This document shows, one piece after another, positions 48,484 to 64,000 of a stretch of 64,000 nt of DNA. The notes under the pieces are model-generated. The model was not told the origin of the DNA, searched no databases, and saw only the letters and a program-made list of their open reading frames with translations. Made by a program: the position numbers and the translations under genes. The stretch comes from an uncultured bacterium (GTDB lineage Bacteria > UBP6 > UBA1177). Every line of letters begins with the position of its first letter. Position 1 is the first letter of the stretch. The stretch is from contig CAJOFY010000020.1 of the NCBI GenBank assembly GCA_905233945.1, positions 11,320-75,319 on the forward strand, in the 5' to 3' direction.

Positions 48484-48969
48484 ATGGCAGGCATTGGAAA
48501 AGACTGGGCTGTTAGAGGTAAAACTGCAGTCGGGGTCGAAAACAGAATCTATTTTTTGGGTGAAATTTTTTGGACTGAGCGTGAGCCGTGGAAAACGACA
48601 TGTTACGGTAGAAATCCGAACAAGCCTCTCAGGGCGGCCATGGTGGCAGTCAAAAGTTCGAATTTCGGTAGAGTTACGATGATTCCAGGATCTTCGCAGT
48701 TTTCCGAGGGAGAGTGGAAATTCACACCTGAGGAGATATTGAACAACACTTCGCAGAAAGGGATTGTAGGAACCTACGACCTGGATTATATCAGAGGAAT
48801 AGACAGGTGGTTTATCGAAGGCGATTACAACTATACCAACAAAAGCGAAAACTGGAAATCTGTTGTGAAGGACAAAAATCCGGGTTTTATCGGTACCATC
48901 AGCACGAAAGATAAACAAAGACTTGCTGATATGGTTGTGAAATATATGAAAAAGGGAGAGACAAAATGA
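48484..48969 (+). CDS. Uncharacterised protein A (first gene of the cas-linked operon)
   Basis: 161 aa; GGAGGTG RBS; no recognisable domain; stop overlaps next start (ATGA). Confidence 0.5.
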   Translation: MAGIGKDWAVRGKTAVGVENRIYFLGEIFWTEREPWKTTCYGRNPNKPLRAAMVAVKSSNFGRVTMIPGSSQFSEGEWKFTPEEILNNTSQKGIVGTYDLDYIRGIDRWFIEGDYNYTNKSENWKSVVKDKNPGFIGTISTKDKQRLADMVVKYMKKGETK

Positions 48970-50063
48970 ATATGTGGGATTTTATTTTAAAGCTCCGGAA
49001 TAAGGAATGTCCTGACGATATGAATGAAATGCTGAACTTTTGGACGGAAGCACTCTGCAAGGACAAGAACATCCGCGGATGGTTCCGCAATGCAGTTCAA
49101 TTAAAAGAGGATTATGTCAGGGCAGCTGTAATCGATGTTATGATATCGGCAGGGAAAAAAGAGGACGAGAATGAAAAAAACAAGGACCGTTTTAGATCGT
49201 TCATAGAACAACATATTGATACAGAAGATGAGGCGGCGCGGGAAGAGAAAATAAAAAGCGATTTTTATAAAGCGGTCTACAACAAGGTTTGGGGGATGGT
49301 ATTTGTAAGAAAAAAGGGTGATCCGAGTGAAGAATCAGAAGAATCAGAAAAACAATGTGAATATAAAGAGCCGGCCTTGAATGCAGTCTCTATAGATTAC
49401 ACTCCTGACGAGAATGAAAAAAATATGGAACAGAAACACAAAGAACTTCAAGAGATGGGTTTTGAGGATAAATTCTCCTGCGATCAGATTATGGAGCTTG
49501 TTGACACGGAAATCTTTGATAAAGTTGTGGATTTTATTGAGAAAAAAGACGCATGGGGGCATTATTCCAAGTTTAAGGATAAAAAATTCCCCATTTATTT
49601 TCACAATCCCAAGTTTGTGGACATCAAAACATGCAATGACATTGACAAGCTGTCGTGGACGAAAAATGTCATGAAAAATCTTTGTCTGGATGACGAAGGA
49701 AAATATGCCAAGGATTTCATTCTTTTTATGCCGTGGGAAAAATATCCTGTAAAAAGCGGAGGGAAATATACATCGGAAGAATATATAGAGTATATGAAAT
49801 CCCAATATATAAAATCCCGTATAGAAGAAAAATTTGAAGAGCTGAATCTGAACGATTCAACGATAAGCGATCATCTAAGAGGGGAACAAGGTGTGGAAAA
49901 AGAGTTCCACCGCCTTCTTGACGAGAAAAAGCTGACAAGCAAAGATATTCATGCTTATTGCTATAAAGAGTTTGAAGATATAATCAGGGAAAATTTTAAG
50001 GAAAGGATGCCTGATATAATTGATTTGGAAGATTTGGAAGAAGATTCGGAATTTTCCGATTAG
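48966..50063 (+). CDS. Uncharacterised protein B (cas-linked), acidic C-terminal tail
   Basis: 365 aa; Lys/Glu-rich, ends EDLEEDSEFSD; translationally coupled to gene A. Confidence 0.5.
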   Translation: MNMWDFILKLRNKECPDDMNEMLNFWTEALCKDKNIRGWFRNAVQLKEDYVRAAVIDVMISAGKKEDENEKNKDRFRSFIEQHIDTEDEAAREEKIKSDFYKAVYNKVWGMVFVRKKGDPSEESEESEKQCEYKEPALNAVSIDYTPDENEKNMEQKHKELQEMGFEDKFSCDQIMELVDTEIFDKVVDFIEKKDAWGHYSKFKDKKFPIYFHNPKFVDIKTCNDIDKLSWTKNVMKNLCLDDEGKYAKDFILFMPWEKYPVKSGGKYTSEEYIEYMKSQYIKSRIEEKFEELNLNDSTISDHLRGEQGVEKEFHRLLDEKKLTSKDIHAYCYKEFEDIIRENFKERMPDIIDLEDLEEDSEFSD

Positions 50064-50116
50064 TTCCACTTTAGGGAAATGTAGAGATGATATTTTTGTG
50101 CTGTTGGAGATAAATA

Positions 50117-51289
50117 ATGAACAAATTCGCAAACAAAGAAAGAATCAAAAAAATTGCTGAAACTTATGCAAGAGAAATGTATCTGTGGGGCGATCCTTTT
50201 GAGGCGCCCAGTGTTCCGCCGGAAGATGTTATCAGGAAATTCATGAAGAACCCGGAAGAGCTGGAACCTGATCTTGTCCGCCAGATAGAGACTGATATAA
50301 ACTGCGGAGCCGCTGTTAAAAAACTTGAAATTTGTGATGCTGATCCGGCACTCGAAGAAAATATTCAGATCTCCGGAGAGGAAATACGCAAGGCGCTTGA
50401 ATCGATGAAACATCCTGAAACTAAAATGGATTTTCCTTGCAAGGGCGGTGTTTTCTATACAAAAAGCAAACTCAAGGTGTTTGATGATGCAAAAGGAAAA
50501 AACTATAACATTTATACTTTCCTTCCTCAGGCTGTTCTGCTTCTTAGTGACGAAAAAAGAAAATCGTGCGGAACGAGACTCTTCAGGTGCGCAGTTGTAA
50601 CACCCGATTTCGCGGGTGGAGCCGTTGACGGTCAGGATATGGACCTTGGAAACGGCTGGATTCTCCACAAATGGCTGTGTTTTCCTGTAAGTTTCGAGCA
50701 GCTTGACTGTGAAAGAAAAATGGCTGATGTAGAAAACATTGATAAAATCGCCGAAGAGGTCAACAACTATTTCTTTTCTGAACACGAAATGACGTGCTAC
50801 GGCAGGAAAGAACAGAGACTCTCGGCGATGTCGGATTATGTTCCGGCTATGGCTGATGCCGATGTGGCAAGAGCTGAATGGCAGGCGGAACACTCCGTAT
50901 CTTTCGACACTATACAGGCTTATACAAAAGAATCTTTCAGGAAAGCTGCTGATACCGACGAGGATGTCAGCCGACTTGTTGTCAGAAGAGGTGAAAACGC
51001 CGTTGCGAAATCTTTTGAAGCGGAACTTGATGTAATAATTGATATCAATGCCGACAACTGTGATAGAATTGTAAAAGAGAAGGCATTTCCGACATGGACT
51101 ATTGATAAAGATGCAAATATTCCGGATGGAACTGTTTTCCTGCTGCGGGATGTCAGAAACGGAAACACGATCGGTTCAGGAGAAATAAGTCGCGGCGTGG
51201 CATGGCTCGAGCGTCTTGTTCCGGAGGCTGTTACGATTTCCGTAACTGACGCATCACAAGTAGTTCTGGAGGTTTATCTTCCATGTTAG
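50117..51289 (+). CDS. Uncharacterised protein C (cas-linked)
   Basis: 390 aa; no recognisable motif; overlaps gene D start by 7 nt. Confidence 0.5.
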   Translation: MNKFANKERIKKIAETYAREMYLWGDPFEAPSVPPEDVIRKFMKNPEELEPDLVRQIETDINCGAAVKKLEICDADPALEENIQISGEEIRKALESMKHPETKMDFPCKGGVFYTKSKLKVFDDAKGKNYNIYTFLPQAVLLLSDEKRKSCGTRLFRCAVVTPDFAGGAVDGQDMDLGNGWILHKWLCFPVSFEQLDCERKMADVENIDKIAEEVNNYFFSEHEMTCYGRKEQRLSAMSDYVPAMADADVARAEWQAEHSVSFDTIQAYTKESFRKAADTDEDVSRLVVRRGENAVAKSFEAELDVIIDINADNCDRIVKEKAFPTWTIDKDANIPDGTVFLLRDVRNGNTIGSGEISRGVAWLERLVPEAVTISVTDASQVVLEVYLPC

Positions 51290-52641
51290 TAAAAATTTTT
51301 GATTCCGCTCATACTGGAATGAGCCGAAGTCAGTTTCTTCGTTTTTTTTTCAAAGATTTCCCTTATGAAGCAAAAGACTTTGAATCGACAAATTTCGAAG
51401 AATCACCCGAAAATCCTGAATTGCGCGACTTGTTTACAGATCTGGGTTCGCTTTCGCTTCTGATGATCAAAAACAAAGAAGAAAACGATGAAATCCGGAA
51501 ATTGAAGGCGTTTTTCAAAGATAAAATCCCTTTTCAGCCGTGTAATAAAACCAAATTTGAAGATCTAGACAAGCGGAGATTCTCCGCAGTGTTTTTCCCG
51601 ATAGAGACAGGAGCTGATCCTGAATGGGGAATGTGCGTCAGAAGTGATGCAGGCGACACTTTCTTCTTTGATTCAAAAGACTGCGAATGGAAATCCGGAT
51701 GGAGCGGTGACGGAGATTCATATAAACTCGCTGCGGCACTTGCGAAAGAACTTCTTGAATCGGATTTGCCGGAACGGGATGAACATATTTTCAAAGCTGC
51801 GCAGGACTGGATTGTCACAGGCAGCGTAGATGGAAAAGGGAAAGTCGGCAAAGTAGCTCTCGGCGGCAAACTAAGGCTCAGAACAAAAAAGAGTTTTATG
51901 ATTCCATTGGAAAATATTGCCACCCTTTCGGATGAAGAGAGAAAAAGGGATTTGTTTTCAGTAGATGAGATCTCGACGGCGATGAATCTGATTACAAGAA
52001 ACGGTGTGAAACCGCTTGTCGAGCGCGAATTTCCTCTGGAAGTTGATGAACTTCACATTCTTGTCGGTGCGGCTCTTGCTCCGCAGGTAGCTTCCGTCGT
52101 GCTTCTGAATGCAAAAAAAATTATACTCTGGCACTCGGAAAATTCCAAAGTAAATGCAGATGAAATGTGTGAAATCGCCCGAAAATTAAAGGGAATTGTC
52201 CCTGAAAAGCGCAAAATGTCGTCTTCATCCCTGCTTGATGCCGAAAAGGAACTCAAAAAGTATTTCGCTTACGGCAAGATTTCGCCTCAGGCACGGATTT
52301 TTTTCAATTTCACGAGCGGAAACAGACTCATGGCGATGGCAGTCCAGTCAGTGGCAAGACTTTATCACAATGTAGAGATGATTTACCGCGATATAGATGA
52401 AACCGACAAAAAAAAGGAGGCTGAAGAGAGCCGTCTTATGACATTCAATCTTCTGCAGTACAGCGAATTCCCCCCTCTTTACGGTAAAATATACGGAACT
52501 GTAAGGAGCGGACTTGATGTCAATTTTCTGCGGAACGGCAAAAGAGAAACTGCAAAGAACGTCAATTTTCAGCAGAACGAAGAAACTGAATATAAGGACG
52601 GAGAGGATTTTTTAAATAAACTGATAAAAAAGGAGAAGTGA
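51283..52641 (+). CDS. Uncharacterised protein D (cas-linked), possible Rossmann-like sensor domain in C-terminal half
   Basis: 452 aa; stop abuts the cas10 start (52641/52642); C-terminal region (ELHILVGAALAPQVASVVLLNAKKIILWHS) has a beta-alpha Rossmann-like pattern, but assignment to the CRISPR-associated Rossmann fold (CARF) is unproven. Confidence 0.45.
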   Translation: MLVKIFDSAHTGMSRSQFLRFFFKDFPYEAKDFESTNFEESPENPELRDLFTDLGSLSLLMIKNKEENDEIRKLKAFFKDKIPFQPCNKTKFEDLDKRRFSAVFFPIETGADPEWGMCVRSDAGDTFFFDSKDCEWKSGWSGDGDSYKLAAALAKELLESDLPERDEHIFKAAQDWIVTGSVDGKGKVGKVALGGKLRLRTKKSFMIPLENIATLSDEERKRDLFSVDEISTAMNLITRNGVKPLVEREFPLEVDELHILVGAALAPQVASVVLLNAKKIILWHSENSKVNADEMCEIARKLKGIVPEKRKMSSSSLLDAEKELKKYFAYGKISPQARIFFNFTSGNRLMAMAVQSVARLYHNVEMIYRDIDETDKKKEAEESRLMTFNLLQYSEFPPLYGKIYGTVRSGLDVNFLRNGKRETAKNVNFQQNEETEYKDGEDFLNKLIKKEK

Positions 52642-54279
52642 ATGGCAACTTACGTTTACGGCGGAAAATTCCAGGGAATCCAAAGCTACATTTTTTCAAC
52701 GAACAGACTGAGGGAGAACATCGGTGCAAGCGAACTGCTGAACGAAATATGTACCGAAGATTTTCTTAAAGAAAAACTTACTTCTTTCGAAATCAAAGGT
52801 GATTACGAAATTGTGCAGAAAGCGGCAAGTACAATTAAAATCGTTTTCCGAGAACAAGACGATGCTAAAAAAATGAAACAGGAATTTCCCAAGGTCGCAC
52901 GTGACTTGGTTCCTGGAATAGAGTTTTCACAGACTTATATTGAGCAGAAAAGTGATGATCTGAAAAACATAGACAAAGAAGTCAGAGATAGTTTAGAAGA
53001 GGAACTGAATAAGGAAAAAAACCGTCCTGCAACACTTTATTATCCTAATCTGATGATCGTAAAAAGGGATAACCGCACAGGACTGCCGGTTCGCGCTGAA
53101 AAAAAATACAGAATAAATTATATCGATGATGATGGAAAACAAAAAGAGAAACCTGCAGATGAATCGACATACAAAAAAGATTCCAAAGCAAATGATGCTC
53201 ACCCGAAACTTGTGGAAAAACTTATCGGAGAAGGACGGGGCCAACTGATGCCTGTTGAAATTGAACGAATTTCAAATTCAAACAGTTTTATTGCTGTTGT
53301 TCACGCTGACGGAAACGGACTCGGTCAGATAATAAGCAATTTGGGAAAGAATGTTAATTCAAAATTGTTTTCCGAGACACTTGACGACTGTCTCGTCGGG
53401 GCAGCCGGAGATGCCTTCAGAGAAATAATAGAGAATAAATACAATGGTGACAAAAAAAATTATTATCCGTTCCGTCCGATGGTGCTTGGCGGAGACGACT
53501 TTAATTTTATCTGCAAGGCGGATGATGCCGTTGAGTTCACAAAGAAATTTATAACGCTGGTCGAGAAATATACCGAAACAAAGTTTGAACCTCTTTTTGG
53601 AGATACAAACGAACAAAATAAAAAAGTGTCAAAAATGACGGTTTGTGCCGGAATAGCTTTTGTTAAAGAGAATTATCCGCTGCATTTTGCCTACGAACTG
53701 GCGGAATCGCTGTGTGATCTTGCAAAGGACAAAGCAAAGGATCTGCGAAAGCAGGAAGTGGAAAGATTAAAAAAAGAAAATGCTGAAGCAAATAAAGATG
53801 CGATAAAGAAGGTTCTGATTCCTTCCTGTATCGCTTTCAGAAAGGAATTGGGCAGTTTTGCTGAGGATTTCGATAATATAAAAGAAAAGGACAAGAAATT
53901 TATTTTCGGACCTTATGCGGTTTCCGACAGCGGATACAAACTTCCTCAGATTGACAGTCTGGTTAAAGTTGCGGAAGTTTTGAAAGACAACAATCCTTTC
54001 AAATCGTTCCTCAGAAACTGGATGAGCGATGAACTGGTCAATCCGCATTCGGCTCAGCTTTTAAAAAAACGTTTCATGCAGGTCGCAAATGAGAAAAACG
54101 GTGGAGCATACGCAAAATTCTGCAATGCGTTGAATGAACTTGTTCCACAGGCAAACGCAGAAGACCTTACGCTTGAAAAGGACGGTGTTTCACCTGTTCT
54201 CGATATTCTGACTCTTATTTCCATTGCGGAAAAAACAGACCCGGACAGTAAGAAAGGAGGAGAAAATGATAACAATTAA
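52642..54279 (+). CDS. cas10: Cas10 (type III large subunit) lacking HD domain, cyclase GGDD motif intact
   Basis: N-terminus starts directly with palm-1 signature (YVYGGKFQGIQSYIFS..LRENIGAS, compare Cas10 GDxSGIQxFIF..LRGRS); palm-2 DxD (AVVHADGNGLG) and RPMVLGGDDFNF; no HD motif, no treble-clef CxxC pairs. Confidence 0.7.
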   Translation: MATYVYGGKFQGIQSYIFSTNRLRENIGASELLNEICTEDFLKEKLTSFEIKGDYEIVQKAASTIKIVFREQDDAKKMKQEFPKVARDLVPGIEFSQTYIEQKSDDLKNIDKEVRDSLEEELNKEKNRPATLYYPNLMIVKRDNRTGLPVRAEKKYRINYIDDDGKQKEKPADESTYKKDSKANDAHPKLVEKLIGEGRGQLMPVEIERISNSNSFIAVVHADGNGLGQIISNLGKNVNSKLFSETLDDCLVGAAGDAFREIIENKYNGDKKNYYPFRPMVLGGDDFNFICKADDAVEFTKKFITLVEKYTETKFEPLFGDTNEQNKKVSKMTVCAGIAFVKENYPLHFAYELAESLCDLAKDKAKDLRKQEVERLKKENAEANKDAIKKVLIPSCIAFRKELGSFAEDFDNIKEKDKKFIFGPYAVSDSGYKLPQIDSLVKVAEVLKDNNPFKSFLRNWMSDELVNPHSAQLLKKRFMQVANEKNGGAYAKFCNALNELVPQANAEDLTLEKDGVSPVLDILTLISIAEKTDPDSKKGGENDNN

Positions 54280-54799
54280 CTATAAAATCGAATTTTTTAC
54301 CGACTGGAACTGTTCCAGCGGTCTCACAGGAAACGCCGATATCGATATCGCGGCTCTGCGTGACAATGACGGATTTCCGTATGTTCCCGGCAAAACGGTA
54401 AAAGGACTTTTGAGAGATGCGGCAAGAAATCTGGGTGAAACCAGTGAAGAAAAAATTTTCGGTTCTCCAAACGAGAAAGTTGACGAAACCGAAATAGAAA
54501 AAGCATACTTCTCAAATGCCGAACTTAATGAAAATGTCCGGAAAGCATTGAAATACGACAATGAGAAAAAAGCGTGCCTTTTCCGCGAAATTGCATCTAC
54601 CGCCATTGGTTCTGACGGGGTGGCAAAAGACAATTCGCTCAGAAAAGTCGAAGTTGCTATTCCTCTTACACTTTTCGGCACAATCGAATGTGAGGAAATG
54701 CACAAAGATACGATTTCGAGATGCATGAAGTTCATAAAAAGGCTCGGTATGGAGAGAAACCGCGGTCTTGGAAGATGTGAAATGTCGGAGGTGAAATAA
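54266..54799 (+). CDS. cas7: Minimal Cas7 (Csm3-like RAMP)
   Basis: AGGAGG RBS; RAMP motifs SSGLTGNADIDI...DGFPYVPGKTVKGLLR and C-terminal Gly-rich loop GMERNRGLGRCE. Confidence 0.65.
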   Translation: MITINYKIEFFTDWNCSSGLTGNADIDIAALRDNDGFPYVPGKTVKGLLRDAARNLGETSEEKIFGSPNEKVDETEIEKAYFSNAELNENVRKALKYDNEKKACLFREIASTAIGSDGVAKDNSLRKVEVAIPLTLFGTIECEEMHKDTISRCMKFIKRLGMERNRGLGRCEMSEVK

Positions 54800-56331
54800 T
54801 GAGATACTGTTACAAAGTCACGCTTCTTGCCGATGTCGTAATGAGTTCGCTCAGCTCGACCGAAGTATCGGAATCGCTTGATTATCTCAGCGGTTCTGCA
54901 TTTATGGGGATCGCGGCAAATTATCTTTTCACAGAAAACAGAAAAAACGGAAAAAATTATGATGTTTTTGACGCTGTTTTTTCAGGGAAAATCCGTTTTC
55001 TGGATGCCCATCCGCTGATTGACGGTAAAAGAAGTTTCAAGATCCCGCTCTGCCTCCACAAACCGAAAGTAAAGGGCGCTGCGAAAAAATACCGTTTTGA
55101 AGGAAAACCGCTGGAGGAAGGTGAAAACAAGATCCAGATGAAGCAGGTACGCAAGGGTTTCTTCATCGCAGACGGCGGAACCTGGACAAAAGTCGAACCG
55201 GAACACCAGTACACGATGAAATCTTCATACGACAGCGAAACAAGACGTGCCCAGGACAACGCTCTTTTCGGCTACGACGCTCTTGTAAAAGGAAGCGAGT
55301 GGGTTTTTGTCATGGAATTCGACGATGAAAAGAAGGATATCGCCGAAGAACTTAATAAATTTTTCATTTCAAAAAACCACAGGATCGGAAAATCGAAGAC
55401 CAGCCAGTACGGAAATGTGGAAATCAAAAGAGACGATTCTCTTCTTTCTGACTGCGGGACCTATGAGGCGACAGAAAACAAATACAAAGTCTATGCCGAT
55501 TCGCGCCTCTGCTTCTTTGATGAAAACGGTCAGCCGACATTCCAGCCGACACCTGAGCAGCTCGGTTTCAAAGACGGAGAAATCCTCTGGAACGAAAGTT
55601 TTGTTAGAAAATATGTCTTTACTCCGAGAAACGCGACAAGAAACGCTTACGACGGCGATATCGCCTGCATAGACAAAGGAAGCGTGTTTACTGTCAAGTC
55701 CGAGACAGGTCACAACGGAAGAAAAGTTGTCGGTGAATATCAGTCGATAGGTCTCGGGCAGATAATCGTAAATCCGGAATTTCTGAAAGAACATCCGGAG
55801 CATTTGAAAGATGTTGATGAAAACGATACTAAACCGGCAGTTCAGTGCAACGGTCCTCTTGTTGCATGGCTTGAAAGTAAGCAGAAAGAGAAAGATGTGG
55901 AGCAGAAAATCGCTGAGCAGGTAAATGAGGCGCGTAAGCTTATTACATGGCTTGAAAGTAAGCAGAAAGAGAAAGATGTGGAGCAGAAAATCGCTGAAAA
56001 GGTGACTGCTGCTTTTGCAAGTATGCCGGTCGGCATTTCTCCGAGCCAGTGGGGAGTTTTGAGAGCAAAAGCAAGAATGGCACTTGTCGAACATACAGAT
56101 TGGGCAGACTTCGAATATGCCATTTTCTTGGCTGGAGATGCATATCTTAAAAAAGAGCGCCTGAATTCAAAATGGGGCACGGATAAAGTTAAAAAACTCC
56201 ACAGTGTTTGTAAGAATGTTTGCGGTAATTCAACTTGGAACGATATTCAGAAACTCCGCTTTTTTGAGCTTCTGTGTGCGGCAGCAGCAAAAGAAGCAGC
56301 CAAAAAAACAAAAGATAATGGAGGCAAATAA
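54799..56331 (+). CDS. cas5: Cas5-group RAMP (Csm4/Csx10-like) with C-terminal extension containing a 27-aa tandem repeat
   Basis: N-terminal YLSGSAFMGIAANYL (RAMP G-loop variant), Csm4-like HRIGKSKTSQYGNVEI; coupled start (ATAATGA) with upstream gene. Confidence 0.55.
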   Translation: MRYCYKVTLLADVVMSSLSSTEVSESLDYLSGSAFMGIAANYLFTENRKNGKNYDVFDAVFSGKIRFLDAHPLIDGKRSFKIPLCLHKPKVKGAAKKYRFEGKPLEEGENKIQMKQVRKGFFIADGGTWTKVEPEHQYTMKSSYDSETRRAQDNALFGYDALVKGSEWVFVMEFDDEKKDIAEELNKFFISKNHRIGKSKTSQYGNVEIKRDDSLLSDCGTYEATENKYKVYADSRLCFFDENGQPTFQPTPEQLGFKDGEILWNESFVRKYVFTPRNATRNAYDGDIACIDKGSVFTVKSETGHNGRKVVGEYQSIGLGQIIVNPEFLKEHPEHLKDVDENDTKPAVQCNGPLVAWLESKQKEKDVEQKIAEQVNEARKLITWLESKQKEKDVEQKIAEKVTAAFASMPVGISPSQWGVLRAKARMALVEHTDWADFEYAIFLAGDAYLKKERLNSKWGTDKVKKLHSVCKNVCGNSTWNDIQKLRFFELLCAAAAKEAAKKTKDNGGK

Positions 56332-57800
56332 TGAAGAAATATCTGGCAAGAATCATATTCGAGGCTGAAACACCGCTCCATGTCGGCAGCGGCAGTTCAG
56401 ACCTTACCCTTGATGCGCCCATAAACTGCGATGCGAACGGACTTCCTCAGATAAACGGATCAAGCCTCGCAGGAATTCTGAGAAGTTCTTTCAGTGACGA
56501 CGAAAAAATCAGAGAAAAAATTTTCGGTTTTCAGAAAAAAGCAGCAGAAGAAGAAGGAAAAGGTGAAGGTTCAAGGCTTGTTGTCAGCAATGCACACCTG
56601 ATTTATGAAGGCGGCAGAGTTGTAGAAGGCCTGATAACCAACGATGAAATAACAAAAAGCAAATATCTCAAAGCGATGCAGGCTTACGCTCTTCCTCTGC
56701 GCGATCACTGCAGGATAAATGAAAAAGGTGCTGCAAAAGATCAGGGAAAATTCGACAACTGCGTCCTTCCGAAAGGTGTCAGATTTGTATGCGAGCTTGA
56801 ACTGACTGAAAATGACAAAGATCTTTCCGCTGACTGGGAAAATCTGCTTCAAGTTGTTTCAAGCGATACTTTCAGGGTCGGCGGCAAAGTTAGAAGCGGT
56901 CTCGGAAGACTGAAAGTTCATGAATGTTTCGAAAAACCTTTTGATTTTCAAAATCCTGATGCTGTCAAAGAATATCTTGAACACTCTTCCTCATTCAATA
57001 AAAAAACTGCATGGAAAACTGAACTCAAATCAGGCGGAAAGTCAGATAAATATTTGTGCTACACTCTCGAGATCCAGCCGGAGGATTTCTTCACTTTCGG
57101 CAGCGGATACGGAGATGAAGAAGTCGATATGACTCCGAAAAAAGAGATCGTTGTTAAGTGGGACGGTGACACTCCTGACATCAGTGAAGCAAAAATCCTT
57201 ATTCCTGCTTCTTCGATCAAGGGGGCGATTTCACACAGGACCGCTTTCTACTACAACAAACTGACAGAAAATTATGCTGAAAAATTTAAAGGTGTTAAAG
57301 AAGAAGATAAGCCGGTCGGTCCAAAAAACGAAGCTGTAAGAGCTCTTTTCGGTTATGACAAGCAAAAAGAGGCTGAATTTAAAAAGCCGGAAGTGCCTGC
57401 CGATAAGCAGGAGAAGGCTGAATCTGAAAAGCAGGAAACTCCCGCAGGCAAAGTGTTTTTTGACGACATGATAATTGAAGAAAATGCCGATGAGAAAGTT
57501 TTCAACCATGTTTCGATAGACAGATTCACAGGCGGTGCGATGAGCGGAGCTCTTTTTGACGAGAAAGTCTGCGGAACCAGCGTCGAAGTTGAACCTGATA
57601 AGTTCAAACCGCTGGAGATCGAACCTCTGAAGATTTATGTCAAAAAATCGGCTTTCGAAGGAAACGTCAATGTCAGAGAAGCTTTCGAAAATGCTCTTGA
57701 CGACATCTGCACCGGAATGCTTCCTCTCGGCGGCAGCACGATGCGCGGACACGGCTGTTTTACAGGAACTTTGAAAAAACCGGAGGATAACAATGAGTGA
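56331..57800 (+). CDS. cas7: Fused double-Cas7 RAMP (two Csm3/Csm5-like domains in one polypeptide)
   Basis: Domain 1: ETPLHVGSGSS...GLPQINGSSLAGILRS with G-loop VRSGLGRLKV; domain 2: ILIPASSIKGAISHRTAF with terminal G-loop LPLGGSTMRGHGCF. Confidence 0.6.
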   Translation: MKKYLARIIFEAETPLHVGSGSSDLTLDAPINCDANGLPQINGSSLAGILRSSFSDDEKIREKIFGFQKKAAEEEGKGEGSRLVVSNAHLIYEGGRVVEGLITNDEITKSKYLKAMQAYALPLRDHCRINEKGAAKDQGKFDNCVLPKGVRFVCELELTENDKDLSADWENLLQVVSSDTFRVGGKVRSGLGRLKVHECFEKPFDFQNPDAVKEYLEHSSSFNKKTAWKTELKSGGKSDKYLCYTLEIQPEDFFTFGSGYGDEEVDMTPKKEIVVKWDGDTPDISEAKILIPASSIKGAISHRTAFYYNKLTENYAEKFKGVKEEDKPVGPKNEAVRALFGYDKQKEAEFKKPEVPADKQEKAESEKQETPAGKVFFDDMIIEENADEKVFNHVSIDRFTGGAMSGALFDEKVCGTSVEVEPDKFKPLEIEPLKIYVKKSAFEGNVNVREAFENALDDICTGMLPLGGSTMRGHGCFTGTLKKPEDNNE

Positions 57801-58191
57801 AAATATTATAAAAAGAGAAATGGACCGCCAGCAGCTTAAAGAATTATGGAATGAACTGAAAGCTGAAGGGATGGACTGCGGCTACTACTGGCTTGACAAT
57901 GATGATCACCCGGAACTTTTTGAAAACGGAAATATGCCCGATTTTCCCGGCAACAGCCGTAACTTCATCGTCGAAAGCTGCTGGTACAAAAAGAACGAAA
58001 AGAGTGTCGAGATCCGTTTTGCAGGCGGAAAATACATCGTCACGACAGTTGATCTGACGAAAGAAAAACTTGAAATACCAAAAGAATACTTTGTCTCGAC
58101 GCAGAAAGAAGCGACAATCCTTTTCTCGGATATCATCAACGAAGAAGACGGTTCGATAAAAAAGATTGTTTTTGTTGGTTTCGGAAATTAG
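57793..58191 (+). CDS. Small uncharacterised cas-embedded protein (132 aa)
   Basis: Overlaps upstream stop; mixed alpha/beta, not obviously Cas11. Confidence 0.45.
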   Translation: MSENIIKREMDRQQLKELWNELKAEGMDCGYYWLDNDDHPELFENGNMPDFPGNSRNFIVESCWYKKNEKSVEIRFAGGKYIVTTVDLTKEKLEIPKEYFVSTQKEATILFSDIINEEDGSIKKIVFVGFGN

Positions 58192-58200
58192 GAGGCAGAA

Positions 58201-60537
58201 ATGGCATACGATAATGATCAGAACAGGAAAGGTTCAAATAGTTTCGGGAAAAATCCCACTATAAAATCACCGTATAATTTTGTACCTCTTTCAGAGACAG
58301 TCGTTTGCCCTGATTGGGCGGATGAAGTCAGCCATGACATTCCGTTTGAAGACGGCATCAGCGGAAAAATCGACCTCACAGTCACGCTTCAGAGCGATAC
58401 TTACATCAGAAACGGCGGGAATTGGAGTGAAGCAGATAAAAAAGACGACAAATCTAAATGCCAGAAATTCTTCACTGCAGCAGTAAACGGCGAAAAGAAA
58501 TACATTATTCCCGGAACATCGTTCAAAGGAATGATCCGCAATGTCCTTGAAATCGCAAGTTTCGGAAAGATGCAGAAAGTCAATGACGACAAGTATTCGA
58601 TAAGGGATCTGCATAACACAAGATATACCGGTGAACTGACTGAAAAAAGAGGCGGGATTATTTATCCTAAAACAAAGGCAGGATGGCTGTGTCTCGATGA
58701 AGGTTCCTATGAAGATGAAGGCGGAAGAAAGTGGCAGATAATTCCTTGTGATTATGCGAGGATAGAGCAGGAAGAACTTAGTCCTGATTTTGGCAGAAGA
58801 GGGACTAAAACACTCAAGGAAACTACTGAATTTAAGTATGAAAAATTCGGAGAAGACAAGCTCGAAGTAACTTTTCAACTCGATGAAAAAACAGAACATG
58901 ATGAGCATTCATGCGGAACAATATACTATAAAAAAGTAAAAAAAGACACTCTCAACAAGCCCGAGTCCGAGATGAAAGGAATTCTTGTTTTTACCGGCCA
59001 GCCAAGCAATCGAATTACTCAGGCAGAACGTAACAGCAATGAAAAACTAAAAAAACAACATCCTAAACACATGGAATTTGTTTTCTACGAATATGAAACT
59101 TCGAAAAAACCTCGATCTATTACAGCATCACAAAAAGAAAATTTCATATTTATAAATTCTGACAGCAATAAAAAACCTCTTCCGGAATGGGAATACTGGA
59201 CAAGAAATGAAGAACCGAAGGATAAAAATCTGAAAGAGAAAAAAGGTGACGGAGAATTGAAAGAGGGAAGAAAAGTCCCCGTTTTTTATCTCGAAGACAG
59301 CGAGGGAAATATAAAATCTTTCGGTCTTGCAATGATGTACAGACTGCCTTACGACAACTCTGTCGTGCAGACGATAGAACATACTTCAAGAGATCATTTT
59401 TCTTTTGATGCTTATAAAAAATACGAAAACAAGAACAAAGATAAAGACGATAAAAATAAAGACAAAGATGAATGGAAACCAGACTTGTCAGATCTCATAT
59501 TCGGTTACTCGAATAAGGAAAAATCCCTTAAAGGCAGAGTCCAGTTTTCGCATTTTATCAGTAAAGATAAGGTCGGAGAAATTGAGACTGTCGGTGAGAC
59601 GAAAACAACCGTTCTCGGAGGACCTAAAGCAAGTTATTATCCTAATTATCTGGAACAGCCGGATCTTAAAGCAGGATATAAACTGTTCTGGGATAAAGAT
59701 GCTAAAATCAGAGGTTGGAAGCGCTATCCTGCGCAGGGAATTGAAGCTTCATACCCGCCACCTCCTGAGATAAACGGAAAAGTGAATGAAGATGTTGCGA
59801 CAAAACTTATTCCGCTGAAAGCAGGTGCAGAATTTAAAGGTTCTGTCCGTTTCTTCAATCTTAAACATGAAGAACTCGGTGCTCTGCTCTGGGCTATTAC
59901 CTGGGATAAAGACAAGTACTGCCAGCACAATATCGGTATGGGAAAACCGCTCGGTCTCGGCAGAATCTCGATAGATATTACAGCACAAGTGATTACGGAA
60001 ACTTCAGAAACAATGGATGATTTCCTTGCAGAATTCAAGAAGTATATGAACGGTAAAGTTCCTAATTGGGAGAAGTCCGAACAGATAACAGAACTCAAGC
60101 GAATGGCGGACATCAGGTTCTGGAGTGACGAAGTAACGACATCTTATCCTATTCTTGATATGAACTGCAAACCTACCATCAACGAGTTTAATGATGCGAA
60201 AACAGCAATGGAAAAACTCGAGCGTTATTCTGAAATTGCAGACCGGCACGATGTCAAGGTAGAAACTCTGGAAGACAAGCTGAAAAAAGATGAAAAAAAG
60301 GCAAAAATTGCAGCAGCTTCCGAAGGTTTGGCTCCTGAACTCCAGAAAGTATTTGAATCACTGCGCAATTTAACGAAAGGCAAATTAAACAATAAGCTTA
60401 AAAACAATGAACTCACTGATAAAGGTAACGAACTCACCGAGAAAGAAGTCGCAGTGCTTAAAATTCAACCTCAGGATGCCTGGGAAAAATGGCAGTGGGA
60501 AGTTATAGATTCTCGTAGAAAAAATTGGGACAAATAA
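58201..60537 (+). CDS. cas7: Large Cas7-family RAMP (Csm5/Cmr6-like) with insertions and alpha-helical C-terminal tail (possible fused small subunit)
   Basis: GGAGG RBS; SPYNFVPL N-terminal motif, YIIPGTSFKGMIRNVLE, distal G-loop GMGKPLGLGRISI; final 180 aa Lys/Glu-rich helical. Confidence 0.6.
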   Translation: MAYDNDQNRKGSNSFGKNPTIKSPYNFVPLSETVVCPDWADEVSHDIPFEDGISGKIDLTVTLQSDTYIRNGGNWSEADKKDDKSKCQKFFTAAVNGEKKYIIPGTSFKGMIRNVLEIASFGKMQKVNDDKYSIRDLHNTRYTGELTEKRGGIIYPKTKAGWLCLDEGSYEDEGGRKWQIIPCDYARIEQEELSPDFGRRGTKTLKETTEFKYEKFGEDKLEVTFQLDEKTEHDEHSCGTIYYKKVKKDTLNKPESEMKGILVFTGQPSNRITQAERNSNEKLKKQHPKHMEFVFYEYETSKKPRSITASQKENFIFINSDSNKKPLPEWEYWTRNEEPKDKNLKEKKGDGELKEGRKVPVFYLEDSEGNIKSFGLAMMYRLPYDNSVVQTIEHTSRDHFSFDAYKKYENKNKDKDDKNKDKDEWKPDLSDLIFGYSNKEKSLKGRVQFSHFISKDKVGEIETVGETKTTVLGGPKASYYPNYLEQPDLKAGYKLFWDKDAKIRGWKRYPAQGIEASYPPPPEINGKVNEDVATKLIPLKAGAEFKGSVRFFNLKHEELGALLWAITWDKDKYCQHNIGMGKPLGLGRISIDITAQVITETSETMDDFLAEFKKYMNGKVPNWEKSEQITELKRMADIRFWSDEVTTSYPILDMNCKPTINEFNDAKTAMEKLERYSEIADRHDVKVETLEDKLKKDEKKAKIAAASEGLAPELQKVFESLRNLTKGKLNNKLKNNELTDKGNELTEKEVAVLKIQPQDAWEKWQWEVIDSRRKNWDK

Positions 60538-60539
60538 CT

Positions 60540-62312
60540 ATGACTCCGGCTTTCTATACTCTCAGAACTGCTTATTCCGCGCAGAAAAGAGGCGTGATCC
60601 TTCACGCTGTCCTGCAGGCGATAATGAAAGAGAGCTATATGGATGCTTTCCCCGGCATGGTCTGGAAAAATCTGGCTGTGCCGAACATTTTCTACCATGT
60701 CGAGGGAAGGCGTTTCAGCGATGTTCTGGAGGAAAAGGAGGTCTTTACTGTCTGCTACTTTTTCTGCGGAATTGACGAAGAAACAGTTGCAAAGTTCACC
60801 GATGCTCTGAAAAAGCGGATGGATGTGCCTGAAAACCAGCATTACTACAGGCTGGAAAAGGTGGCTCAGCCGGTTTTGAAAACGCTTGACGATCTTCGCA
60901 GAGAGTATGCCTTCATTCCTGAGAAGGGTGAGATCACGCTTGATCTATTGATGCCGCTTCCTTTCAACTCGGGCAAGGATACGGAAAAAACAGAGATCTC
61001 GAAAGAGCTCTTCAAAAAGCTGCTTTCGGGAAGGATGAAACGCCTTTTCGGCGATGATCTGCAGGGCGGGATCGATACCGATGCTTTCGAGATCACGACA
61101 GATTTAAGGCGCAAAACTCTGTGCACGCACCAAAAGAACGGCGTCTACGGGCAGAGGATACGCGGATGTATCGGCAAAATCACGCTAAAAGGCGATTTTT
61201 CATCTTTCCGTGATCTGCTGATCCTTGCGTGCGAACTGCACCTGGGGCCGGAACTTACGACTTCTCAGGGGTATTTCGTGCCGGAAAGAGGCGGAGAGCC
61301 TTCATCTGCGGATGATGATGAAACAGTGGCCGAACCTTACAAAAAGCCGCTCTACATCACGGCGATGAACTCTTTTCTCGGGGTGAGCGGAGGAACGATC
61401 GAGATTTACAGCGACCGAGAGCTGAAAAATTCATATCCGATGAACAGAATAGGCGAGGTCATCGTTCTGGAAAAGGCGATTTTCAGCACCGATTTTCTGA
61501 CGAAGTGCGCGGAACGCGGTATTCCGGTTTCGATTTCTCTCGGAAAATCGGCTGAATACGGCACGTTCACCAAGCCGGAAAAGAATCGCTACGAAGTTCT
61601 TAAAAGCCATATTCTGAAGTTTTCATCTCTTTCGGAAGAGGAAATCGTCAAAATTTCGAGAGATATAGCCGAAACGAAGACAAGAGCGTTCATAAGCATT
61701 TTCAAAAGAAGGTGGGAAAAAGGAACCGCAAGGATCCTGAAAAAGCTGGAAGCTGCGGCTGATTTGTTCGCAAAGGCTGAAACGATCGATGAAATACGCG
61801 GCTACGAAGGAATATCGAGCAGGCTGATATACGAGAAGATCCAGAATCTGATCCTGAATGAGGATTTCAGGTTCGAGAGGCGCGGCAGATACGAAAAAGA
61901 CTTTATGAACACGACTCTGAATTTCGTATATTCAAAGCTTTATCAAAGGGTCGTGCTTACGCTTAATGCGCTCGGACTGAATCCGTATCTGGGTTTCCTG
62001 CACAGTTCAAACGACCGCTACGAATCGCTTGCCTGTGACATTGAAGAGCTTTTCCGCGCACCGGTTTTCAACGCAGTAATCAATCTGATCAACCTGCAGC
62101 AGCTGAAAGCGTCCGATTTTGTTGAGACTGAAAAAGGAATCATTATCAAGCAAGGGGCGATCCGCACAATACTTGAGGTTTTTGAAAAAGAATTTCAAAA
62201 AATTAACCCGAAAAGCGGAAAAACGCTTGAATATGAGCTTTATAACCAGTGTGTGCTCATCAAAAACTGGGCACTCGGGAAATGTGAACTGAGCTGGTTC
62301 AGGTGGGAATGA
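60540..62312 (+). CDS. cas1: Cas6-Cas1 fusion protein
   Basis: N-terminal 260 aa with Cas6-like G-rich loop (ELHLGPELTTSQGYF); C-terminal Cas1 core (LYITAMNSFLGVSGGTIEIY ... RYESLACDIEELFRAPV). Confidence 0.65.
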   Translation: MTPAFYTLRTAYSAQKRGVILHAVLQAIMKESYMDAFPGMVWKNLAVPNIFYHVEGRRFSDVLEEKEVFTVCYFFCGIDEETVAKFTDALKKRMDVPENQHYYRLEKVAQPVLKTLDDLRREYAFIPEKGEITLDLLMPLPFNSGKDTEKTEISKELFKKLLSGRMKRLFGDDLQGGIDTDAFEITTDLRRKTLCTHQKNGVYGQRIRGCIGKITLKGDFSSFRDLLILACELHLGPELTTSQGYFVPERGGEPSSADDDETVAEPYKKPLYITAMNSFLGVSGGTIEIYSDRELKNSYPMNRIGEVIVLEKAIFSTDFLTKCAERGIPVSISLGKSAEYGTFTKPEKNRYEVLKSHILKFSSLSEEEIVKISRDIAETKTRAFISIFKRRWEKGTARILKKLEAAADLFAKAETIDEIRGYEGISSRLIYEKIQNLILNEDFRFERRGRYEKDFMNTTLNFVYSKLYQRVVLTLNALGLNPYLGFLHSSNDRYESLACDIEELFRAPVFNAVINLINLQQLKASDFVETEKGIIIKQGAIRTILEVFEKEFQKINPKSGKTLEYELYNQCVLIKNWALGKCELSWFRWE

Positions 62313-62596
62313 TGCCGAATACGGGAAATTATGTTTTCGCTTACGACATTTCGCTCACGAAAGAGCGGAACAAAGTTGATAAAGTTTTGAAGGAATACGG
62401 GTTTCGTATCCAGAAAAGTGTTTTTGAATGTGTTCTGACTGAAAATGACCGCGAAAAACTGCTGAACAGGCTGAATGAACTTGGGTTGAACAGCGGTTTC
62501 GTTAAGGTTTACAGGCAGGATTCCTATTTTAAGGCAAAAACTGTGGGACCTGCACCGGAAAAGCAGGATACCGGTTTTGCCTATTTCGCGGCTTAG
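62309..62596 (+). CDS. cas2: Cas2
   Basis: YVFAYDIS...RNKVDKVLKEYGFRIQKSVFEC Cas2 signature; ATGATG start overlapping cas1 stop. Confidence 0.8.
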   Translation: MMPNTGNYVFAYDISLTKERNKVDKVLKEYGFRIQKSVFECVLTENDREKLLNRLNELGLNSGFVKVYRQDSYFKAKTVGPAPEKQDTGFAYFAA

Positions 62597-62648
62597 CGCG
62601 CGAATGTTCGTTGACAATTGAGAAACAGATAAACTCTGCTATGACCTC

Positions 62649-62711
62649 ACCCCTTTTTCCCCTCGCAGACCTCACCCTAATCCCTCTCCATTGTGGCGAG
62701 GGAAAAGGGGT
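62649..62711 (+). promoter_or_regulatory. Long imperfect inverted repeat (ACCCCTTTTTCCCCTCGC ... GCGAGGGAAAAGGGGT) between cas2 and the CRISPR leader
   Basis: 16-18-nt arms separated by about 29 nt of C-rich sequence, 53 nt 3' of cas2 stop. Confidence 0.4.
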
Positions 62712-62958
62712 TCATAGGTAGCTAATTTTTGTGTTGCAGGAGCCTTAGATCAGGAAACGTTTTTATAACGAGGTTTGAACTAATATCTCGATTTTATTTG
62801 GTAATTTCTTAAATGGCGTTTTCTTTGAACTTCTTGATCTCAGTAAAAAAACAGCGGTCGCACGAAGTCACATTTTTGCGGCTGTTGAAAAATGAAAATA
62901 TGGGTAGCCAATTTTTTAATTGAAAACCTCAGTATTTTCTGCTATGTGAGCATGCTAC

Positions 62959-63750
62959 TGTAACGAGTAGCAGAGTAGCTACTCTGGTTGAAACTGTTAG
63001 TGCACTGAATTGTTTTGCCATTTTGTGTAACGAGTAGCAGAGTAGCTACTCTGGTTGAAACAGGTGTCTTTCTGTATCCCCAATCTCACGCTCAAGTAAC
63101 GAGTAGCAGAGTAGCTACTCTGGTTGAAACTGTGTTCATTCTAAGTCTCCAAAATAAAAGTTACTGTAACGAGTAGCAGAGTAGCTACTCTGGTTGAAAC
63201 ATTCACCCATGCCTTACTGTCTCGAATTACTTCAGTAACGAGTAGCAGAGTAGCTACTCTGGTTGAAACTATATCTTCTTTATCTTTTAAAAGATAAAAA
63301 AGGTAACGAGTAGCAGAGTAGCTACTCTGGTTGAAACTCTTTCTCTTCTTCTTTGTCTTCTTTTTCATCAGGTAACGAGTAGCAGAGTAGCTACTCTGGT
63401 TGAAACCTTCTACAAGGCAGAATACCAGAAAATGTCCAAGTAACGAGTAGCAGAGTAGCTACTCTGGTTGAAACCCGTTAAGAAAACGTTTCATAATTTA
63501 CACCTTCGTAACGAGTAGCAGAGTAGCTACTCTGGTTGAAACTAATACTACCTTTTTTCTTTTCTTCTGTTACTTGTAACGAGTAGCAGAGTAGCTACTC
63601 TGGTTGAAACCAGAGTTTCCGCAACATTCTGATGACCCGCTGTAGTAACGAGTAGCAGAGTAGCTACTCTGGTTGAAACATCGTACCAGGCTGATACCTC
63701 TCCGATAATGCCCCTGTAACGAGTAGCAGAGTAGCTACTCTGGTTGAAAC
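62959..63750 (+). CRISPR. CRISPR array 1: 12 copies of 35-nt repeat GTAACGAGTAGCAGAGTAGCTACTCTGGTTGAAAC, spacers 32-36 nt
   Basis: Identical repeats with 67-71 nt period; repeat has internal 7-bp hairpin (GAGTAGC..GCTACTC) and 3' GTTGAAAC handle; AT-rich leader 62716-62958 on cas side. Confidence 0.95.
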
Positions 63751-63789
63751 TAGTTCGTGTTGTTCTTGTTGTTGTTATTGTTGTTGACA

Positions 63790-64000
63790 GTTACATGAAG
63801 GCGGAACCTAGGCTCCGGTTGAAACTATGCTTCTTTATCATTCTTAATTTCAGTTATTTGTTACATGAAGGCGGAACCTAGGCTCCGGTTGAAACAGCCA
63901 GTCAGGTTTGATATCATCAGGCAGACTGCGTTACATGAAGGCGGAACCTAGGCTCCGGTTGAAACAAACAGTTGCCGTCGTAAGTCATATCACTGACAAG
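63790..64000 (+). CRISPR. CRISPR array 2 (truncated by window end): at least 3 copies of distinct 36-nt repeat GTTACATGAAGGCGGAACCTAGGCTCCGGTTGAAAC
   Basis: Three identical repeats with 70-nt period starting 39 nt after the last repeat of array 1; shares 5' GTWAC and 3' CYGGTTGAAAC with array-1 repeat. Confidence 0.85.

Follow-up and report, generated by a model that had tools for sequence, protein, structure and literature searches.

RT-Cas1 systems are able to record RNA and have been studied, and used, as RNA recorders. The closest described relatives of the protein considered here are the Cas6-RT-Cas1 fusions of type III systems, known from Marinomonas mediterranea MMB-1 and from Thiomicrospira (PDB 7KFT/7KFU); the Marinomonas Cas6 domain was reportedly defined by Mohr et al. 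2018. In such fusions the Cas6 domain processes repeat RNA (PMC8102632). According to a passage in PMC11014452 that cites Silas et al. 2016, an engineered M. mediterranea variant, Cas6-RTdelta-Cas1, acquires spacers from DNA, supports efficient integration in vitro and shows no bias to highly expressed genes in its acquisition. The Cas1 of Butyrivibrio sp. YAB3001 is a described case in which an RT-Cas1 ancestor secondarily lost its RT (PMC6753606). In a search of the literature, the terms "Cas6-Cas1" and "Cas1-Cas6" occurred as gene-order strings and not as names of fusions, and a published description of a natural RT-less fusion was not found.

The window, i.e. the whole 64-kb stretch of DNA that was analysed, encodes such an RT-less fusion. 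With a probability of roughly 85%, we attribute it to in-frame loss of the RT from a Cas6-RT-Cas1 protein, leaving a DNA-only integrase joined to the Cas6 of the locus by a tether that is probably a leftover.

Domain organisation of the fusion protein

The cas6-cas1 gene (60540..62312, on the forward strand, as are all features described below) is a single unbroken open reading frame running from the ATG at 60540 to the TGA at 62312, with 590 codons and a stop. The ATG was taken from the list of open reading frames and is favoured over an in-frame TTG upstream (60525) because homologues share the same start methionine. The gene was annotated for its Cas1 part by Pfam, NCBIfam and PADLOC. In the protein, a Cas6 domain (aa 1-252) and a complete Cas1 (aa 267-590) are joined by a linker that is acidic and disordered (aa 253-266).

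The Cas1 integrase domain (61338..62309) is matched by PF01867 on aa 271-550 over profile positions 1-283 of 283 (E 1.2e-53, 182.6 bits against a cut-off of 22.3) and by TIGR00287 (161.3 bits against a cut-off of 71.7), and the Cas1 structures matched in the PDB include 8D3P (6e-21). The catalytic residues E423, H488, D500 and E503 are all present and are 99-100% conserved in 154 relatives; the corresponding motifs (Glu in GxEG, His in LGxxH, Asp/Glu in DxxE) align with those of the solved Cas1 8D3P. The stop codon overlaps the start of cas2 (62309..62596; ATGA, as read from the sequence), which encodes 95 residues from the ATG at 62309 and is identified by PF09827 (E 2e-14) and TIGR01573.

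The Cas6 domain (60540..61295) scored lower in the profile searches. The Pfam Cas6 family PF10040 matches aa 137-238 with E 0.01 and 17 bits, under the gathering cut-off of 25 bits, so that a profile search alone is insufficient to confirm Cas6. NCBIfam gave no Cas6 match to the protein, and a profile built from 12 Cas6 domains matched no sequence in the PDB up to E 10. Since the Pfam match is sub-threshold and the PDB sequence search came back empty, the assignment is based on the fold together with homology to Cas6-RT-Cas1 proteins. An AlphaFold2 model of aa 1-262 (pLDDT 86.7, pTM 0.85) shows two beta-alpha-beta-beta-alpha-beta halves, i.e. the double ferredoxin/RRM fold. In a Foldseek search of the PDB, the top 34 matches were all Cas6 endoribonucleases (probability 1.00, TM 0.5-0.63), including 6DD5, the Cas6 domain of the Marinomonas fusion. 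A profile of the Cas6 family matches the protein with E 1e-114, and two relatives (P0010 and P0174) have a precomputed PF10040 match. The G-rich region, in the segment LHLGPELTTSQGYF, contains the glycines G209, G212, G218 and G244, invariant across the family, as well as G236, and the family consensus is kept at K30, H53, E131, R165, E232 and H234. The RT-less clade departs from Cas6-RT-Cas1 at several positions that the latter conserves (R190, K199, G201, T215 and D225); these changes could reflect a relaxed Cas6-RT interface or, alternatively, an altered function.

A sequence-only reading of this gene had called a Cas6-like N-terminus with a G-rich loop, a full Cas1 at the C-terminus, and no RT. 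The combined data agree with it: Cas1 lies far above the profile cut-offs over its full length and with its four catalytic residues, Cas6 is recognised by the ferredoxin fold and the invariant glycines where the Pfam match fell short, and no RT profile match was obtained within the protein.

Relatives and the missing reverse transcriptase

In an exhaustive phmmer search, the best 150 cluster representatives were almost all 840-960 residues long, each with two matched stretches. When 173 related proteins were classified, 127 proved to be Cas6-RT-Cas1, which bears out the earlier statement that Cas6-Cas1 fusions go with RT-Cas1 systems, and the RT-less Cas6-Cas1 proteins amounted to only about five clusters at 50% identity. 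Both halves of the window protein align collinearly to the same Cas6-RT-Cas1 proteins, leaving a clean gap of about 290 residues at the RT. The gap falls exactly between ...SQGYF and KKPLYIT..., and a junction alignment with two relatives (P0026 and P0012) places 14-17 linker residues where these carry the RT with its YADD motif. The linker itself (61296..61337), delimited by this alignment and by low pLDDT, lies within ERGGEPSSADDDETVAE. A profile of the window protein aligned with its relatives matches 7KFT, the solved Thiomicrospira Cas6-RT-Cas1, at 3.8e-91. The window protein alone gives a weak match to 7KFT (1e-9) in its Cas1 part only, and hence belongs to a sub-branch other than that of the studied Cas6-RT-Cas1 proteins. 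Lacking a group-II-intron-like RT with YADD, it is a derivative of the Cas6-RT-Cas1 family and not a functional member of it.

The RT was also sought outside the fusion gene. When all six frames of the window were searched with a profile built on the RT domains of the relatives, no RT-like open reading frame emerged (E up to 10), as the sequence-only reading had anticipated, and none was found within +/-10 kb at ten related loci. A fission, with the RT relocated to a neighbouring gene, was rejected on these grounds. The same scans weigh against an RT gene at some other place in the genome whose product would sustain spacer acquisition from RNA in trans. Some CRISPR-associated RTs are indeed separate genes (PMC5513706), and the genome is covered here by 64 kb; in the characterised fusions, however, the RT sits between Cas6 and Cas1 and contacts both (PMC8102632), and we regard supply in trans as highly improbable.

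Trees were built for both domains by neighbour-joining with 200 bootstraps, and are not maximum-likelihood trees. In the Cas1 tree, the clade of the window protein joins the RT-less P0025 and the RT-containing P0026 with 82% bootstrap, deep among Cas6-RT-Cas1 proteins, i.e. the Cas1 domain is nested within the RT-associated clade. The Cas6 tree agrees in topology and likewise has the RT-less clade inside Cas6-RT-Cas1. In the Cas1 tree, two further RT-less proteins each pair with a sister that has the RT (100% and 96.5%). Overall, there have been at least three independent RT losses, each leaving a short linker; on a single loss shared by P0025 and the window clade, the neighbour-joining tree is divided (36% against 64%). 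For P0025, no genomic locus was confirmed in a scan of JGI metagenomes.

These results bear directly on the two origins that the sequence-only reading had left side by side, namely RT loss and an independent fusion, in which a stand-alone cas6 and a stand-alone cas1 unrelated to RT-Cas1 joined in this lineage. The latter could draw on the common CRISPR gene order of cas6 followed by cas1, and on the existence of separate Cas6 proteins with 73-90% identity to the N-terminal domain. These proteins, however, nest within the Cas6-Cas1 clade of the Cas6 tree and are not basal to it. Moreover, the nearest outgroup of both domains is one and the same Cas6-RT-Cas1 protein (P0026), both ends align in order with such proteins while the RT drops out as a clean gap, and the next Cas1 not linked to an RT lies much further away (E 3.5e-14 against 1e-101). 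An independent fusion was rejected on phylogeny and collinearity and appears exceedingly improbable, whereas the comparison of sequences supports RT loss as the likely origin through collinearity, the RT gap and nesting in both trees.

Locus context, CRISPR arrays and selection

A type III-D effector operon (51283..60537), identified with PADLOC, NCBIfam and Pfam, lies immediately upstream of cas6-cas1. It encodes a CARF-like protein (51283-52641), a Cas10d with GGDD present (52642-54279), two Cas7_IIId proteins (54224-54799 and 56331-57800) on either side of Cas5_IIId/Csx10 (54799-56331), Csx19/TIGR04423 (57793-58191) and a large Cas7_IIId/TIGR03986 (58201-60537). Pfam, NCBIfam and PADLOC revealed no separate cas6 in the operon. 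As RT-centred surveys and Pfam annotation call the fusion protein just "Cas1", loci of this kind seem to be without a Cas6. Separately, csx10 was seen to contain an internal duplication, found by a repeat search and missed by Tandem Repeats Finder. The effector subtype beside the fusion varies, being III-D in the window and III-B in a related locus (L001).

Downstream, a leader (62597..62959, delimited on the sequence) extends from cas2 to the first repeat, and a simple scan found no sigma-70-like promoter in it. The leader is part of one alignment with L001, about 90% identical, that spans from the start of cas6-cas1 through the array. Two arrays were located by repeat search. Array 1 (62960..63750) holds 12 copies of the 35-nt repeat GTAACGAGTAGCAGAGTAGCTACTCTGGTTGAAAC with spacers of 32-36 nt; as RNA, this repeat forms a 7-bp hairpin upstream of GUUGAAAC (-11.2 kcal/mol, z -2.6). 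Array 2 (63790..64000) directly abuts array 1, contains at least three copies of a different 36-nt repeat, GTTACATGAAGGCGGAACCTAGGCTCCGGTTGAAAC, that folds weakly as RNA, and is truncated by the end of the window. Repeats of the second type also occur after stand-alone Cas6 in two related loci (L009 and L010), and a variant follows the Cas6-Cas1 of another (L007). Every type of repeat associated with this Cas6 family ends in ...GGTTGAAAC. Three spacers, searched as exact 26-28-mers against IMG/VR, gave no match. The spacers of the window and of L001 are entirely different despite 94% identical Cas6-Cas1 proteins, which is consistent with spacer turnover.

It could be argued that the protein is non-functional, the in-frame deletion being either a sign that the adaptation module is dying or a product of mis-assembly. 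A reductive trend is visible among the relatives, as cas1-cas2 has been lost entirely from three loci (L008, L009 and L004) and one protein (P0110) retains a degenerate RT remnant. Nevertheless, the same Cas6-Cas1 architecture is kept in ten other clusters (clustering at 90% identity) at 61-94% identity, from several samples and with two effector types, and dN/dS is 0.14-0.28 in the Cas6 and Cas1 domains alike, indicating purifying selection. On both counts the fusion is no assembly artefact. Decay is further opposed by the conserved catalytic residues, all of them intact, and by the arrays of the window and its relatives, which are long (12-20 repeats) and wholly different in their spacers; this explanation is thus considered very unlikely.

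Proposed function and comparison with known systems

Under RT loss, the whole RT domain would have been dropped in frame from a Cas6-RT-Cas1 ancestor, giving Cas6, a flexible acidic linker of about 17 residues, and Cas1. The Cas1 domain and the translationally coupled Cas2 would then act as a conventional integrase, predicted to place spacers taken from DNA into the neighbouring array at its leader end. Direct acquisition from RNA would have been lost; with the entire RT missing, RNA-templated spacer acquisition should be impossible. The Cas6 domain, the only Cas6 of the locus, would cut pre-crRNA at the foot of the hairpin that the repeat forms, leaving the 8-nt GUUGAAAC as a 5' tag, presumably for the type III-D effector complex encoded upstream.

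That the two domains are still tethered is most likely a relic of their history rather than something the system requires. Close relatives that have lost cas1-cas2 encode the same Cas6 on its own, as the last gene ahead of the array in III-D loci that are similar in other respects, or joined to Cmr6 in a Cmr6-Cas6 fusion. The converse proposal is that the tether is under selection, with repeat-bound Cas6 targeting or regulating the Cas1-Cas2 integrase and so coupling crRNA biogenesis to acquisition without an RT. It is favoured by the survival of the fusion, with a short linker each time, through the RT losses described above, and by the Thiomicrospira Cas6-RT-Cas1, in which a mutation of the Cas6 active site alters the ligation of DNA and of RNA by the integrase (PMC8102632). 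Against it, the linker is poorly conserved, with a dN/dS above that of both flanking domains, and disordered (pLDDT <50 in the full-length AlphaFold2 model, whose pTM of 0.57 gives no fixed interdomain orientation); the same Cas6 functions apart from Cas1 in the close relatives just mentioned, and an in-frame deletion is the easiest route to losing an internal domain. We therefore judge selection on the tether unlikely. Were it nonetheless at work, the repeated survival of the fusion would reflect function and not history.

The window protein shares its domain order with the Cas6-RT-Cas1 proteins of M. mediterranea and Thiomicrospira, and its Cas6 and Cas1 are homologous to theirs; cas2 is adjacent and type III effectors lie alongside, in what behaves in both cases as a mobile adaptation module joining different effector subtypes. 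The difference is the linker of about 17 residues that replaces the entire RT of about 290 residues with its YADD. This clade shed the RT and retained all else, and related lineages did so independently at least twice more. Cas6-RT-Cas1, Cas6-Cas1 and Cas6 thus form a natural reductive series for asking when acquisition from RNA is dispensable, and comparing RT-less proteins with RT-containing sisters such as P0026 could show how integration depends on the RT and on the Cas6 tether.

In canonical type III-D/III-B loci, where cas6, cas1 and cas2 are genes of their own, the predicted function is the same, i.e. processing by Cas6, Cas1-Cas2 acquisition from DNA and a type III effector, and the repeats likewise end in ...GTTGAAAC. 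In the window, by contrast, Cas6 and Cas1 are one polypeptide, and Cas1 belongs to the RT-associated clade. The Butyrivibrio sp. YAB3001 type exemplifies the same process, albeit there an N-terminal RT was removed and a plain Cas1 left, whereas here an internal domain was lost and the flanking Cas6 is still fused. The engineered Cas6-RTdelta-Cas1 has the same domain content as the window protein, Cas6 followed by Cas1 with the RT removed, and on this analogy the latter is likely to act in the same way and take its spacers from DNA. The engineered protein is artificial, whereas that of the window is natural and maintained by selection, in a family in which the RT was lost independently several times. 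The window gene is, in short, a natural counterpart of a laboratory-made RT-deletion mutant, and its novelty is modest.

The cas6-cas1 gene and its two domains

An uninterrupted ORF on the + strand, from an ATG at 60540 to a TGA at 62310–62312, encodes a protein of 590 aa. The stop codon of the preceding gene ends at 60537, and an in-frame TTG at 60525 is a possible alternative start; homologues begin at the same Met as the ATG at 60540 (MTPxF...). The ATG of cas2 (+ strand; PF09827, TIGR01573) lies at 62309 and overlaps the cas6-cas1 stop codon as ATGA, suggestive of translational coupling between the two genes. A 363-nt leader separates cas2 from the first repeat of CRISPR array 1, which comprises 12 identical copies of the 35-nt repeat GTAACGAGTAGCAGAGTAGCTACTCTGGTTGAAAC and spacers of 32–36 nt.

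The sequence-only reading had described the product as a Cas6-like N-terminus with a G-rich region followed by a full Cas1. The latter is confirmed: PF01867 matches over profile positions 1–283 of 283 (E 1.2e-53), TIGR00287 scores 161 bits, and the catalytic residues E423, H488, D500 and E503 are present and 99–100% conserved among 154 relatives. The nearest solved structures of this part are ordinary Cas1 proteins (8D3P, 6e-21). Profile searches thus recovered the Cas1 half of the proposal only, as curated profiles miss the N-terminal 260 aa (PF10040, 17 bits vs. a gathering score of 25). Nor did any PDB sequence match a profile made from the N-terminal domains of 12 homologues. The identity of this domain as Cas6 is settled by its predicted fold. 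The AlphaFold2 model (25-sequence alignment; pLDDT 86.7, pTM 0.85) displays two beta-alpha-beta-beta-alpha-beta units, i.e. the Cas6 ferredoxin fold whose absence would have overturned the sequence-only reading, and every one of its best 34 Foldseek matches in the PDB is a Cas6 endoribonuclease (probability 1.00, TM 0.5–0.63). These include proteins from Sulfolobus (4ILL/3ZFV), Pyrococcus (3PKM) and Thermus (4C9D) as well as 6DD5, the Cas6 domain of Marinomonas Cas6-RT-Cas1. Glycines G209, G212, G218 and G244 of the G-rich region are invariant in the alignment of relatives. The full-length model consists of two confident domains with a disordered stretch (aa 253–266) between them, and their mutual orientation is not fixed (pTM 0.57).

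Loss of the reverse transcriptase

A word-indexed search returned ten clusters of the same 584–593-aa architecture (61–94% identity to the query), publicly annotated simply as “Cas1”. The next best matches were 845–914-aa proteins with a reverse transcriptase (RT, PF00078) and Cas1, some also with a Cas6 match. When 1.84 billion cluster representatives were scanned exhaustively with HMMER, nearly all of the best 150 hits proved to be 840–960 aa long and to align with the query in two distinct segments. Using profiles built for the Cas6, RT and Cas1 domains, 173 proteins were classified: 15 are Cas6-Cas1, 19 are RT-Cas1 (mostly fragments truncated at the N-terminus), and 127 are Cas6-RT-Cas1, which bears out the suspected tie of the fusion to RT-Cas1 systems. 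A profile of the relatives' alignment matches the solved Thiomicrospira Cas6-RT-Cas1 (7KFT, 3.8e-91), and the match takes in the C-terminal portion of the Cas6 domain.

In a multiple alignment the query and its RT-containing relatives are collinear at both ends. Exactly between ...SQGY(F/Y) and (K/R)KPLYIT..., the relatives hold about 290 residues including the RT active-site motif YADD, where the query carries ERGGEPSSADDDETVAE. When 167 Cas1 domains are arranged in a tree by neighbour joining (200 bootstraps, non-RT Cas1 proteins as root), the query clade falls deep within the Cas6-RT-Cas1 radiation, and 82% bootstrap unites it with P0026 (Cas6-RT-Cas1, 876 aa) and the RT-less P0025 (589 aa, 43% identical). 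Elsewhere in this tree, RT-less P0106 is sister to RT-containing P0091 (100%), and RT-less P0079 to RT-containing P0074 (96.5%). In the tree of Cas6 domains the branching order is (P0026, (P0025, query clade)). As RT-less clades nest among RT-containing proteins in both trees, the absence of RT is, on these phylogenies, a derived trait that has arisen at least three times. Of the two origins initially considered, RT loss is therefore upheld by the RT-sized alignment gap and by the nesting; an independent fusion of Cas6 and Cas1 finds support in neither alignment nor trees and is rejected. The same holds for relocation of the RT to a neighbouring gene: an RT profile gave no match in any frame of the 64-kb window at E up to 10, in agreement with the RT-less locus first described, nor in ten related loci with ±10 kb flanks. 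The RT was thus lost rather than relocated nearby.

The remnants between Cas6 and Cas1 vary among loss events, from 9 aa in P0106, 11–14 aa in the query clade and 16 aa in P0025 to 61 aa in P0079 and 211 aa in P0110. In the latter (790 aa, from the representative search), residues ~252–462 resemble RT motifs only faintly and in collinear order, and LNNN stands at the YADD position; this segment appears to be a decayed RT, an intermediate stage of decay rather than a clean deletion. Separately, Cas6 positions 190, 199, 201, 215 and 225 (W, S, S, Y and P, conserved at 77–89% in 103 Cas6-RT-Cas1 proteins) are changed in all members of the RT-less clade (the query has R, K, G, T and D) and may mark the former Cas6-RT interface.

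Effector exchange, reduction to Cas6 and possible array replacement

Upstream of cas6-cas1 lies a type III-D effector operon encoding a CARF-like protein, Cas10d (GGDD), three Cas7_IIId, Cas5_IIId/Csx10 and Csx19. The same arrangement accompanies an 80% identical protein in bacterium UBP6_UBA1209 (L007). P0001 (94% identical) comes from a yak-rumen MAG (L001, L002, L006), where it follows a type III-B Cmr operon and is accompanied by the same repeat as in the window. Window segments 50920–51872 and 60539–63750 are 90–92% identical in DNA to L001 3–955 and 10000–13203, and the effector genes between these flanks are unrelated (III-D in the window, Cmr1-6 in L001). By sequence comparison, the effector cassette has therefore been swapped, with the accessory genes on one side and the cas6-cas1-cas2-array module on the other conserved, which fits the free combination of RT-Cas1 adaptation modules with type III effectors (PMC5513706). 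The leaders of the two loci are 90% identical and no spacer is shared, as expected if spacers turn over. Within cas6-cas1 (60540–62309), dS against L001 drops from 0.24 in the Cas6 part to 0.09 in the Cas1 part, a possible sign of a recombination breakpoint close to where the two domains meet.

A Cas6-domain profile search revealed stand-alone Cas6 proteins (252–262 aa, 73–90% identical to the N-terminal domain). In L008, L009 and L010 they occupy the same place behind III-D operons, with an array directly next and neither cas1 nor cas2. Two are 252–256 aa long: L008 10001–10759, where the array starts 68 nt past the stop codon, and L009 10001–10771. The window and L008 are homologous up to 61282, where the Cas6 domain ends, and then again at the array. 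A 584-aa Cmr6-Cas6 fusion (P0013, L004 10001–11755) resides in a III-B locus devoid of cas1 and cas2. Both forms nest within the Cas6-Cas1 clade in the Cas6-domain tree, indicating a reductive series from Cas6-RT-Cas1 via Cas6-Cas1 to Cas6 alone or Cmr6-Cas6.

The array itself (62960–64000) is composite: the 12 copies of repeat 1 are followed by a 39-nt T/G-rich spacer and at least three copies of the 36-nt repeat 2 (GTTACATGAAGGCGGAACCTAGGCTCCGGTTGAAAC), which runs past the window end. The two repeats have only the 3' ...C(T/C)GGTTGAAAC in common. Repeat 2 recurs as the repeat in L009 and L010, III-D loci with a stand-alone Cas6, a variant follows the Cas6-Cas1 of L007, and L004 also interleaves blocks of two repeat types. 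This composition suggests that recombination has replaced arrays or adaptation modules, and that Cas6 recognises its repeats chiefly by their 3' portion.

The Cas5_IIId/Csx10 gene contains an in-frame 81-nt direct duplication (55858–56008; copies 91% identical, 27 aa, ...WLESKQKEKDVEQKIAE...). Four genes (48484–52641) precede cas10d. Neither Pfam nor PADLOC gives a match for the proteins of 365 and 390 aa, and a 161-aa ORF, scanned against Pfam only, has none there. The fourth, of 452 aa, has a weak CARF-like region (aa ~255–390) and no recognisable effector domain. The 390-aa and CARF-like genes are conserved beside both III-B and III-D versions of the locus (L001, L008). They are candidates for as yet uncharacterised accessory or signalling proteins of type III systems.

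Predicted function and comparison with known systems

The fusion is a real, conserved gene. dN/dS for the Cas6 and Cas1 parts is 0.18 and 0.28 against L001, and 0.28 and 0.14 against L007; the linker is less constrained than both (0.56, against L007). The query equals the family consensus at K30, H53, E131, R165, E232 and H234, the polar Cas6 positions with the highest conservation. With no separate cas6 gene among the annotated members of the III-D operon, crRNA maturation in this locus has the fused domain as its only candidate enzyme. Repeat 1 folds into a 7-bp hairpin just 5' of GUUGAAAC; a hairpin immediately upstream of the 8-nt tag is the usual shape of Cas6 substrates for type III crRNAs. 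The query is most likely a bifunctional protein serving the III-D system, in which the Cas6 domain would process the array transcript to supply the effector complex, and Cas1 would form a conventional integrase with Cas2, drawing spacers from DNA only.

This proposal draws support from publications on the nearest system studied. The Cas6 domain of Thiomicrospira Cas6-RT-Cas1 cuts a 35-nt repeat RNA to 26 nt (PMC8102632). A laboratory Cas6-RTdelta-Cas1 of Marinomonas continues to take up spacers, with DNA as their source and no expression-level bias, and integrates at least as well in vitro (PMC11014452). For the surviving Cas6-Cas1 tether, a possible functional role is favoured by two findings: a Cas6 active-site mutation alters the ligation activities of the Thiomicrospira complex (PMC8102632), and the fusion outlived several independent RT losses. 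Two others speak against it, namely the disorder of the linker in the full-length model and the occurrence of the same Cas6 in unfused form among close relatives.

Surveys of CRISPR-associated RTs (PMC5513706, PMC6013744) took RT sequences as their starting point; they list RT, RT-Cas1, Cas6-RT-Cas1 and secondary fissions, and RT-less Cas6-Cas1 is absent. In full-text literature, Cas6-Cas1 or Cas1-Cas6 appears in gene-order strings only; most subscription papers fall outside this coverage and an earlier mention is possible. The RT-less protein is accordingly a variant of the known Cas6-RT-Cas1 type for which no published description was found in the literature covered. Its mechanism is unsurprising; for specialists the value lies in the evolutionary series and in a comparison set for RT-Cas1 function. 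RT loss in Butyrivibrio left a plain Cas1 (PMC6753606), whereas here it left a Cas6-Cas1 fusion. The DNA-acquiring Marinomonas mutant is a laboratory construct, and the window protein, a natural RT-deleted derivative of Cas6-RT-Cas1, is thus its natural counterpart.
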